From a virus: a stretch of 64,000 bases of DNA. The position numbers and the translations under genes were made by a program. Numbering within the stretch: position 1 is the first letter of the stretch; each line of letters begins with the position of its first letter. The DNA lies in IMG/VR virus record IMGVR_UViG_3300009514_001427. One strand, given 5' to 3'. Shown here piece by piece: positions 55,046 through 56,330 of the stretch. A model generated the notes under the pieces. That model was not told where the DNA came from, made no database searches, and worked only from the letters and a program-made list of their open reading frames with translations.

Positions 55046-55407
55046 ATCAAACTTGGGAATTTCCTAATTCGGTGTGTCGGGTTATAGAGCCAGACACATG
55101 CTGCACAAGGCCACAGGGTTTTTAGCTGCTTTCGCAGGATGATCGCCCATTCTGTATGGTCACGAAGTTTGGCATAATGATTCGTCGCTAATCTGTCTAT
55201 GTGGTTGTCGAACCACCTGTTCTCCATGACTCTCAAGCGATGAATTGCCAATCGATGATTAACATAGTGATGGAGAATCCGAGCGAACTCTTCTTGGTTG
55301 TCCACAAAGTCACAGCAATGTCCAAGGAACGCTCTGCGGACAATCTCTCCATTAAGTGCAGAAACATCTGCTTCGACTTCAGTGAGAATGTCTTCAACGG
55401 TGATCAC
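55039..55407 (-). CDS. hypothetical protein, paralog of previous gene
   Basis: LNGEIVRRAFLGHC. Confidence 0.45.
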   Translation of the reverse strand: MITVEDILTEVEADVSALNGEIVRRAFLGHCCDFVDNQEEFARILHHYVNHRLAIHRLRVMENRWFDNHIDRLATNHYAKLRDHTEWAIILRKQLKTLWPCAACVWLYNPTHRIRKFPSLIC

Positions 55408-56330
55408 GCAAAGAAATCCTCAGCGTCTACGTATTGGAATCCACAACGACTGGCAAACGTCTTGTCGCTCGTCATGTCGCCAACCATCGTGACTTTCGCA
55501 GGATCGAGCTTATACTTCTCAATGAAGTGAACGCCTAATCCCGGCATAGGTTTGCGACACCAACAAGTGATTGGAGGAACCTTATGAGGACAGAACTCGT
55601 AGTCGATGTCTACTCCGAGTAGTTTGTTTGTATGTTCGAAGCAGGCAACAGCATCAGCTACTGATAAGCCTTTGGCTATTGCACTTTGATTGCTGACGCC
55701 CAAAAGGCGAGCACTCAGGTTGCCAATCATGACCTTTCGATCAGGAAGTAAAACAACATCGTCTGTGCAAACGGGCCATTTGCTGGAACCTTTACAGGTA
55801 CGGAGCGTATCGTCGTAATCAAAGATGATTGCTCCATGCTTGTATTTGGGCTCCCAAGTCCGACCAAAAGCGAATTCTGTGATAGATTCGAATCCTTCAT
55901 CTAATCGTGGCGGCTCGAACTCTTTTCGATACTTGAAGAGAGGAGCAGGAGGATACGTATTCGGATCTTTTGCTTGTCTGATTTCTTCCGGCGTCAAAAG
56001 CTTGCCATGCTTGCGTATCATGCGCATGCAAGCATTGAATTGAGCATCTTCAATGGAGGTTTTGAGCCAGAAGCATTCTACTATATGCCCATGCTGTTTC
56101 GCGGCATCAAGGAAAGGTTTGCGGCTTTCAGCAGTTGGAAAGGTATTGTCCAGCAGGATTCGTGAACCCTTCTTCATCTCTGCAACGAAAGGCGCGAGAA
56201 GGTCAGCGACTGATCCTCCCATTTTGTCTCTGCTAAGGATGACTCTATTCTCATGAACTTCTTTGAGCTGAGCGATGGAGCTTTTGCCCGCAGCAGGGTA
56301 TCCCATGATCAAGAGTACTGGCTTAGCCAT
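55404..56330 (-). CDS. pnkp: polynucleotide 5'-kinase/3'-phosphatase (T4 Pnkp-like)
   Basis: N-terminal P-loop LIMGYPAAGKSS at residues 7-18; C-terminal HAD phosphatase motif I IIFDYDDTLRT (DxDxT) and motif IV MVGDMTSDK; 308 aa, same order as T4 Pnkp. Confidence 0.8.
   Translation of the reverse strand: MAKPVLLIMGYPAAGKSSIAQLKEVHENRVILSRDKMGGSVADLLAPFVAEMKKGSRILLDNTFPTAESRKPFLDAAKQHGHIVECFWLKTSIEDAQFNACMRMIRKHGKLLTPEEIRQAKDPNTYPPAPLFKYRKEFEPPRLDEGFESITEFAFGRTWEPKYKHGAIIFDYDDTLRTCKGSSKWPVCTDDVVLLPDRKVMIGNLSARLLGVSNQSAIAKGLSVADAVACFEHTNKLLGVDIDYEFCPHKVPPITCWCRKPMPGLGVHFIEKYKLDPAKVTMVGDMTSDKTFASRCGFQYVDAEDFFA

Follow-up and report, generated by a model that had tools for sequence, protein, structure and literature searches.

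The 64,000-nucleotide stretch of DNA analysed here (the window) belongs to the IMG/VR virus record IMGVR_UViG_3300009514_001427 and carries, at 55404-56330 on the minus strand, a gene for a candidate polynucleotide kinase-phosphatase (PNKP) with a phosphatase of the HAD type; gene and protein are called PNKP-HAD below. The protein is proposed to be a bifunctional end-healing enzyme that acts mainly on RNA, in particular tRNA, cut by metal-independent nucleases, the healed ends being sealed by an Rnl ligase encoded elsewhere. This proposal is given a probability of about 0.55, slightly better than even. The biochemical class, polynucleotide kinase-phosphatase, to which the sequence points, is considerably more secure than the substrate or a role in counter-defence. 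The results described below show which fold and catalytic motifs the protein has, how its family is related to others, and what genes surround it; RNA or tRNA as the substrate, an RNA ligase as the partner, and counter-defence as the role are inferences. The reading in terms of tRNA repair and counter-defence, which goes back to a preliminary description of the window, is plausible, though its support is no more than partial.

The open reading frame (ORF) is exactly as first described, with 308 amino acids (aa) and an ATG start. It is a real gene, far beyond what chance would produce, and the protein database holds 944 relatives of its product, one of which (P0001) is identical and is encoded on a 153-kb JGI contig. 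An alignment-based AlphaFold model displays a confident two-domain fold (mean pLDDT 93.7, pTM 0.88), and Pfam assigns aa 5-95 to the P-loop kinase family AAA_33 and finds HAD matches in the C-terminus. In an alignment of 32 homologues, from which all conservation figures given here are taken, nine kinase residues (G10, A13, G15, K16, R34, D35, D61, N62, and R70) and six phosphatase residues (D171, D173, S213, K260, G284, and D289) are invariant, while D285 as well as C247, H249, C256, and C258 are kept in at least 90% of the members. The P-loop GYPAAGKS is present, but it occupies aa 10-17 and not 9-16 as claimed; the phosphatase motifs DYDDT (aa 171-175) and GDMTSDK (aa 284-290) were both recovered. 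As far as can be judged from sequence, both domains keep every catalytic motif intact.

Among solved structures, the kinase domain most resembles that of mammalian PNKP. When PNKP-HAD is searched against the PDB with phmmer, its best match is the kinase of mouse PNKP (1yj5/3zvl; E 7.5e-17, aa 5-155, about 31% identity), and the same kinase (1yj5/3u7g) is the top Foldseek match of the model, at 31% identity. Mammalian PNKP (1yj5, 3zvl, 3u7e) thereby provides the closest solved kinase domain. Motifs in common with the mouse enzyme are the Walker A sequence GxPxAGKS, NRD, DNT, SR, and a C-terminal F-YRK-FEPP-L-EGF, and R34-D35 is in register both with the mouse NRD motif and with R34-D35 of T4 Pnkp. 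The model for eukaryotic PNKP, TIGR01663, matches the kinase part alone (model positions 366-509, E 3e-17), with 62.1 bits against a cutoff of 502.8. PNKP-HAD is on this basis assigned a PNKP-type kinase domain, while it lies outside the whole-protein family and does not have its FHA-phosphatase-kinase architecture. The mammalian enzymes have the order FHA-phosphatase-kinase, whereas PNKP-HAD has the kinase first, the phosphatase second, and no FHA domain; relative to mammalian PNKP the family also differs in that its kinase is lengthened by an insertion of 15 residues and its phosphatase has the predicted zinc loop.

The phosphatase domain passes the HAD-IIIA model TIGR01662 (46.8 bits, cutoff 44.6) and contains HAD motifs I-IV (DxDxT, S/T, K, and GDxxxD), with D171/D173 in register with D165/D167 of T4 Pnkp and with the FDLDGT motif of mouse PNKP. 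The Pfam family PNK3P (PF08645), to which the phosphatase of mammalian PNKP also belongs when judged at the family level, matches 31 of the 32 family members with E values of 0.001 or less, the lowest being 2.2e-13, and gives cellular homologues scores of 23.5-45.5 bits. The best sequence match of this half in the PDB is GmhB (4pnh, phmmer E 3.8e-10), a D,D-heptose 1,7-bisphosphate phosphatase, and Foldseek finds GmhB and the histidinol phosphatase HisB-N at 22-27% identity (3l8h, 2gmw, and 2fpr among the matches). Both are of the HAD-IIIA type and have a CPH...CxCRKP motif at the identical place: the columns of C247, H249, C256, and C258 coincide with this motif in GmhB (4pnh, 3l8h, 2gmw) and HisB-N (2fpr), where we take it to be the zinc site of the published structures. 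Unlike PNKP-HAD, however, they are stand-alone small-molecule phosphatases lacking a kinase domain. The equivalog models remain far under their cutoffs (NF006506, 46.9 vs. 178; TIGR00213, 31.2 vs. 149.6; TIGR01261, 21 vs. 140), and PNKP-HAD is accordingly described as sharing the CxH...CxC loop with GmhB and HisB-N, by sequence, without being a member of either equivalog group. Existing annotation of the family is solely as 'HAD-IIIA hydrolase'. Taken from these comparisons, the domains are assigned to the PNKP/PNK3P lineage, in an order opposite to that of eukaryotic PNKP.

The preliminary description likened the protein to T4 Pnkp (PseT; PDB 2ia5/1ltq), the sequence of which was verified against the T4 records before use as a query. 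The likeness stands with respect to domain order, size, and catalytic residues. Both are encoded by phage genes, in both the P-loop kinase is N-terminal and the HAD phosphatase, with its DxDxT motif, C-terminal, and T4 Pnkp has 301 aa compared with 308. Aligning the family profile with T4 Pnkp by hhalign gave a collinear match (97.4%, E 1.4e-11) in which K16/S17, R34/D35, D171/D173, and S213 correspond to K15/S16, R34/D35, D165/D167, and S211 of the T4 enzyme, and 2ia5 is the only solved structure that Foldseek matches over both domains, at 16% identity. It does not extend to the sequence family, however: BLASTP against T4 Pnkp was not significant (best E 0.015, motifs only), PHROG 505, which represents the T4 type, covers the P-loop only (aa 5-37, E 0.0016), and phmmer against the PDB did not return T4 Pnkp at E ≤ 1. 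T4 Pnkp further lacks the CxH...CxC loop and differs in domain orientation, with a root-mean-square deviation (rmsd) of about 13 Å in the fold alignment. The T4 type is found in 2293 deposited phage records, the PNKP-HAD type in two of 50,697. To our knowledge the T4 Pnkp gene is not located within a tRNA array. PNKP-HAD is judged from these comparisons to be T4-like in architecture, size, and remote ancestry, and not a member of the T4 sequence family.

Other viral enzymes of related design are also distant. BFVD contains no close relative of PNKP-HAD; phage PseT/Pnk proteins match it over both domains at 12-16% identity, and the PNKPs of giant viruses (Marseillevirus, Catovirus, Hokovirus) and baculovirus Nrk1 appear as fold matches with E about 1e-9. 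The giant-virus PNKPs match one domain closely (rmsd 1.7-2.0 Å, 19-23% identity), but across the giant-virus and baculovirus enzymes identity is 12-23%, and they deviate either in the order of the domains or by having further ones, such as a ligase. A survey of 224 jumbo phage genomes described fusions of an N-terminal polynucleotide kinase (PNK) with a HAD phosphatase, found in genomes that also encode RlaP, RNA ligases of the ATP-grasp type, and numerous tRNAs (Iyer et al., 2021; PMC7824862). These fusions share with PNKP-HAD the concept and the occurrence in very large phages, and the concept of PNK-HAD repair in jumbo phages is thus already published. The present family probably belongs to a different sequence family from the fusions exemplified there, as judged from record counts, since PNKP-HAD occurs in only the two deposited phage records mentioned, both of uncultured huge phages. 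It is an unstudied and widely distributed family, set apart from T4 Pnkp by its domain lineages, its zinc loop and, in the clade of the window, its placement in a tRNA operon.

In the proposed mechanism, the N-terminal kinase would transfer a phosphate from a nucleoside triphosphate (NTP) to a 5'-OH end; Lys16/Ser17 would bind the NTP, and Asp35 would serve as the general base. The phosphatase at the C-terminus, predicted to depend on Mg, would remove a 3'-phosphate by way of an acyl-phosphate intermediate at Asp171, and possibly a 2',3'-cyclic phosphate as well; the small zinc loop would brace the active site. The product ends, 5'-P and 3'-OH, would be those that an ATP-dependent RNA ligase can seal. 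The most likely target would be RNA, above all tRNA, that metal-independent ribonucleases from the host or from competitors have cut, and sealing would be left to an Rnl-type ligase encoded elsewhere in the genome. The established precedent is the T4 repair of tRNA against PrrC (PMC2610378).

The gene neighbourhoods of the family bear on this proposal. Homologues in deposited phages are those of LR756511 (595 kb, 47% identity) and LR756500 (462 kb, 36%). IMG/VR holds at least 124 relatives, the best match being 52% identical; the 80 that were retrieved lie mostly on viral contigs of 100-570 kb and in some cases on giant-virus bins (GVMAG contigs). For the comparison, viral copies were grouped at 70% identity into 47 lineages, and a neighbourhood was taken as 10 kb. 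Clustering of the surrounding ORFs revealed no universal neighbour. In nine of the 47 lineages, RlaP (PF10127), RNA_ligase (PF09414), and/or Rnl1 (PF09511) are encoded within 10 kb of the homologue, and this linkage supports a role in RNA end healing. A cassette of RlaP, one or two RNA_ligase genes (PF09414), and an Rnl1-type ligase (PF09511) within about 8 kb is conserved among the 12 loci of one clade, while in other clades these genes occur singly; in the loci inspected the ligase and RlaP genes are on the same strand as the homologue. Relatives with an RNA ligase in the gene neighbourhood are L012-L023, L035, L041, L046, and L054, the last being one lineage that combines tRNAs, an RNA ligase, and the homologue. 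According to PMC12776372, RlaP owes its name to being associated with ligases of RNA repair. In LR756511, a complete phage of 595 kb, the homologue is found at 102 kb, an Rnl1-like gene at 9 kb, and an Rnl2-like gene at 156 kb, i.e., 54-93 kb away, so a ligase that falls beyond a 64-kb window is normal. Two RNA ligases of the huge-phage PF09414 type in the protein database (P0189 and P0205) are named 'atypical dual specificity phosphatase' by JGI, a name that may have been carried over from an adjacent or fused phosphatase.

Cellular relatives are of two kinds. All 77 matches in GTDB genomes are in metagenome-assembled genomes (MAGs). Myxococcota have stand-alone copies on chromosomal contigs of high GC content (0.70-0.74) and up to 1.1 Mb in length (L086-L111; an example is L089, on a 1.13-Mb Polyangiales contig). 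These are 48-53% identical to the phage protein, as close to it as most phage copies are, and therefore suggest gene exchange between Myxococcota and huge phages. The second kind, found in Planctomycetota and some other MAGs, is a fusion protein of about 640 aa in which an aldo-keto reductase (PF00248) precedes the kinase-phosphatase (L112-L150; for example L124 9026-10954 and L131 6965-10960).

The window itself contains 16 tRNA genes according to ARAGORN, one more than the 15 first reported; they are spread over 38.3-62.8 kb, all of them on the minus strand, with the PNKP-HAD gene in their midst; the HNH endonucleases reported from the same region number three and were confirmed with PHROGs (Table 1). 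Embedding in a tRNA island holds for the window clade, but as a trait of the family it had to be rejected, as only eight of the 47 viral lineages, the window clade included, place the homologue among at least three tRNAs. Nor does the tRNA set look like one chosen to replace nuclease-sensitive tRNAs, as the counter-defence idea had led one to look for. It comprises whole isoacceptor families (four Ser, three Pro, three Arg, and two Thr) and no tRNA-Lys, and for this reason it looks like a general decoding supply; such autonomy fits at least as well as replacement of nuclease-sensitive tRNAs (cf. PMC10264068).

The window protein groups with those of L001 and L003/L004, at 59-61% identity and with synteny of FolD, GlnA, and ADP-ribosylglycohydrolase, and these loci keep the tRNA neighbours of the window around the homologue. 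Upstream of the gene are two tRNAs and a promoter-like match, and downstream three overlapping ORFs and a further tRNA (Table 1). The promoter match is weak evidence, as the consensus scan found nine sites where 5.5 were expected. On the minus strand of the unit from tRNA-Arg(tct) to tRNA-Pro(tgg) no terminator-like site was found. The series of promoter-like match, tRNAs, and overlapping ORFs, together with the lack of such a site, suggests that PNKP-HAD is co-transcribed with phage tRNAs, and in the lineage of the window this is probably the case. The small Cys-rich ORF upstream has a 52% identical counterpart in L001 and no Pfam or PHROG match; where it really starts is uncertain, as the ORF listed has its beginning within the tRNA-Glu gene. 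The three downstream ORFs have neither a family match (Pfam, PHROG) nor a counterpart in the related loci, and the two nearest to the gene (55039-55407 and 54608-55045, minus strand) are paralogues with the N-terminal motif …DI..EV…LNGE.VRRAF.G.

Table 1. Features of the PNKP-HAD gene, its locus, and selected other genes of the window.
Feature	Position	Strand	Basis and remarks
PNKP-HAD gene	55404..56330	-	308 aa, ATG start, stop codon 55404-55406; candidate bifunctional polynucleotide 5'-kinase/3'-phosphatase
Kinase domain, PNKP type, ~aa 1-160	55851..56330	-	phmmer, TIGR01663, Foldseek
P-loop GYPAAGKS, aa 10-17	56280..56303	-	G10, A13, G15, K16 invariant in 32 homologues
R34-D35 of (N/S)RD motif	56226..56231	-	Predicted general base for 5'-OH; invariant in family
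HAD-IIIA phosphatase domain, PNK3P/GmhB type, ~aa 161-308	55407..55850	-	TIGR01662, PF08645, Foldseek
HAD motif I DYDDT, aa 171-175	55806..55820	-	Predicted nucleophile Asp171, and Asp173; both invariant
CPHKVPPITCWC, aa 247-258, predicted zinc-binding CxH...CxC loop	55557..55592	-	Directly before motif III Lys260
HAD motif IV GDMTSD, aa 284-289	55464..55481	-	G284, D289 invariant; D285 at least 90%
Sigma-70-like promoter match TTGACA-16-TACATT, 10/12, with TG	56734..56761	-	Consensus scan; just upstream of tRNA-Arg(tct)
tRNA-Arg(tct)	56659..56734	-	ARAGORN; first gene of putative transcription unit; precedes homologue in L001, L003/L004
tRNA-Glu(ctc)	56579..56654	-	ARAGORN; directly upstream; conserved upstream neighbour in L001, L003/L004
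Small Cys-rich ORF (CPHC...CLSC)	56323..56578	-	Stop overlaps PNKP-HAD start codon
Three overlapping downstream ORFs, 122, 145, 153 aa	54180..55407	-	Same putative unit as PNKP-HAD; 4- to 34-nt overlaps
tRNA-Pro(tgg)	54099..54174	-	ARAGORN; next tRNA downstream
tRNA-Arg(tcg)	52378..52450	-	ARAGORN; conserved downstream neighbour, follows homologue in L001, L003/L004
HNH endonuclease	44765-45283		PHROGs, E 9e-40
HNH endonuclease	47140-47619		PHROGs, E 3e-30
HNH endonuclease	62767-63246		PHROGs, E 7e-38
Cys-phosphatase (HCAMGANRS) fused to PNK-like P-loop kinase, 390 aa	6078..7250	+	Pfam DSPc and AAA_33; phrog_505 E 1.9e-10

The preliminary description had recognised no RNA ligase in the window, and this was borne out by every scan made. 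Pfam gave no ligase or RtcB match in 46 window ORFs. These comprised all ORFs of at least 200 aa, the 3808-aa ORF included, apart from the antisense overlaps 7094-7720 and 19390-20181; the majority of ORFs between 150 and 199 aa; and eight that are shorter. PHROG scans likewise brought no ligase to light. The window ORFs contain no credible KxDG/KxHG ligase motif, tblastn of the window with Rnl1-like, Rnl2-like, and RlaP proteins of huge phages gave no match, and hhalign of the window ORFs of 140-1500 aa against profiles of the same three reached a probability of 6% at best. A 440-aa ORF (4706-6028) beside the DSPc-kinase fusion had no match in any scan.

Several observations weigh against the proposed healing of RNA. 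The 64-kb window has neither an RNA ligase in the neighbourhood of the gene nor RlaP, the Pfam scan just mentioned being empty for ligases and RtcB alike, and 31 of the 47 viral lineages have neither a ligase nor tRNAs within 10 kb. The idea of a tRNA repair module is backed by the relatives that are accompanied by Rnl1-like or Rnl2-like ligases and RlaP, but not by the Myxococcota and Planctomycetota relatives, which have neither tRNAs nor ligases nearby and in many cases are fused to the aldo-keto reductase. The closest characterised relative of the kinase, mammalian PNKP, is a DNA-repair enzyme, and the closest solved relatives of the phosphatase, GmhB and HisB-N, act on small molecules. 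The copy in the window scores only 14.4 bits with PNK3P (E 0.031), under the gathering threshold of 22 bits, and a literature search found no paper on the family and no experiment on any member. The missing ligase in the 64-kb window does not, however, refute repair.

It may be asked whether the ends are healed for ligation at all. In a ligase-independent remodelling of RNA ends, the kinase could phosphorylate 5'-OH fragments and thereby hand them over to host RNases that depend on a 5'-monophosphate, or the phosphatase could free the 3' ends of tRNA from 3'-P or 2',3'-cyclic-P and in this way let aminoacylation or the addition of CCA resume. T4 PNK reportedly acts in the former way after cleavage by RegB, its 5' phosphorylation leading to mRNA decay by 5'-monophosphate-dependent RNases. 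PMC3874168 cites a T4 precedent of this kind under the words 'polynucleotide kinase triggers degradation of mRNAs'. The ligase-free window, the many family loci (the majority) with no ligase nearby, and the position of the gene in a tRNA operon would all fit. However, the two catalytic domains are strictly conserved together, and the linkage of several independent lineages to Rnl and RlaP indicates healing followed by sealing; moreover, ligases can lie far away in the same genome, as in LR756511. Remodelling without a ligase is regarded as unlikely.

An enzyme healing DNA ends in the manner of eukaryotic PNKP would restore 5'-P and 3'-OH at nicks or breaks in phage DNA for a DNA ligase, during phage replication, in repair, or after attack by nucleases. 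The ancestry of the domains favours this, as the best relative of the kinase is the mammalian DNA-repair enzyme and 31 of the 32 members have a phosphatase of the PNK3P type, and so do the chromosomal Myxococcota copies (on the long, GC-rich contigs described above), which are found outside any RNA-repair context. T4 Pnkp accepts both RNA and DNA, however, and similarity to a DNA enzyme consequently does not decide the substrate. In addition, the viral members are linked to RNA ligases and RlaP and not to DNA ligase or replication genes, and the window clade has its gene in a tRNA operon. Healing of DNA is held to be improbable.

A wider interpretation, speculative and quite improbable as it stands, would see an unrecognised end-healing lineage spread over huge phages, giant-virus bins, Myxococcota, and Planctomycetota, in which a kinase of the eukaryotic PNKP type and a zinc-loop PNK3P phosphatase are joined in reversed order. 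In the window clade the protein would then be a ligase-free maintenance enzyme of a co-transcribed tRNA operon, clearing 3'-P, cyclic-P, and 5'-OH ends of the phage tRNAs, and the lineage might mark the prokaryotic or viral source of the catalytic domains of eukaryotic PNKP. That PNKP-HAD is not a polynucleotide enzyme but a small-molecule kinase/phosphatase, acting on a sugar phosphate, a nucleotide, or a signalling metabolite in the manner of GmhB or PFK-2/FBPase-2, is very unlikely: the HAD half is nearest to GmhB/HisB-N in sequence and fold and has the zinc loop in common with them, the Planctomycetota relatives carry the reductase fusion, PFKFB enzymes are among the weak two-domain fold matches, and genes of nucleotide metabolism (phosphoribosyltransferase, FolD, formyltransferase) are found nearby, but the resemblance of the kinase half is specifically to PNKP and runs along all of it, PNK3P matches are found across a family that is linked to RNA ligase and RlaP, and the GmhB and HisB models score far under their cut-offs.

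Some other genes of the window deserve mention. The DSPc-kinase fusion (Table 1), which lies 49 kb from PNKP-HAD and has an SNF2 helicase of 1014 aa encoded after it, is a second candidate for end processing, its relation to PNKP-HAD being uncertain; stand-alone homologues of its kinase are found 1-4 kb from the PNKP-HAD homologue in L018, L034, and L024. An 875-aa homologue of eukaryotic MVP (Major Vault Protein) is encoded at 48132-50759 on the minus strand (Pfam MVP_shoulder 1.7e-23; MVP in the PDB 6e-27, aa 499-792). LR756500 (462 kb) and LR756501/LR756503 (735 kb), all uncultured huge phages, are the only deposited phages that have it, and a literature search for papers describing vault-protein homologues of huge phages found none. 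In L001 its gene comes directly after that of PNKP-HAD; as a conserved partner it was rejected, since it is near the gene only there and is 93 kb away in LR756500.

A class-I release-factor gene with the PPT tripeptide of RF1 and a GGQ motif (63320-64000, minus strand) runs off the end of the window and is interrupted by an in-frame TGA at 63893-63895, within the conserved PCRF domain. As TGA terminates nine of 35 long window ORFs, wholesale recoding of this codon is unlikely, and the interruption may represent readthrough, a pseudogene, or a sequencing error. Among the related loci, L080 (14535-14603) and L003 (6118-6192) have unusual tRNAs, a suppressor-type tRNA with anticodon CTA (Pyl according to ARAGORN) and a tRNA with an irregular anticodon loop, which hint at stop-codon readthrough in some relatives. 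On the plus strand are tandem paralogues of 533 and 538 aa (57166-58767 and 58774-60390) with no family match, preceded by a 115-aa ORF (56812-57159) that has the same N-terminus and the same C-terminal tail as they do, as though derived from them by an internal deletion. The ORF at 18530-29956 (minus strand) encodes 3808 aa with Laminin_G_3/concanavalin-like lectin (Pfam) as the sole clear domain, and is probably a giant structural or adhesion protein. Auxiliary metabolic genes at 14894-16045, 17301-18185, 32490-36231, and 61134-61655 encode a subtilase, an ADP-ribosylglycohydrolase, a formyltransferase, a glutamine synthetase, FolD, and a phosphoribosyltransferase; of these, FolD, GlnA, and the ADP-ribosylglycohydrolase are syntenic in L003.

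The practical gain of placing PNKP-HAD is a better annotation of huge phages; no new principle is opened. The family is abundant in metagenomes and closer to an animal DNA-repair enzyme than to the T4 enzyme, and this makes it a reasonable target for biochemistry, where it would be of interest whether RNA or DNA is preferred, what the zinc loop does, and what the aldo-keto reductase fusions mean. If the proposed healing of RNA is correct, huge phages with near-complete tRNA sets would also carry the means to heal RNA that has been cut, which would fit with tRNA-targeting nucleases being a major pressure on these phages.

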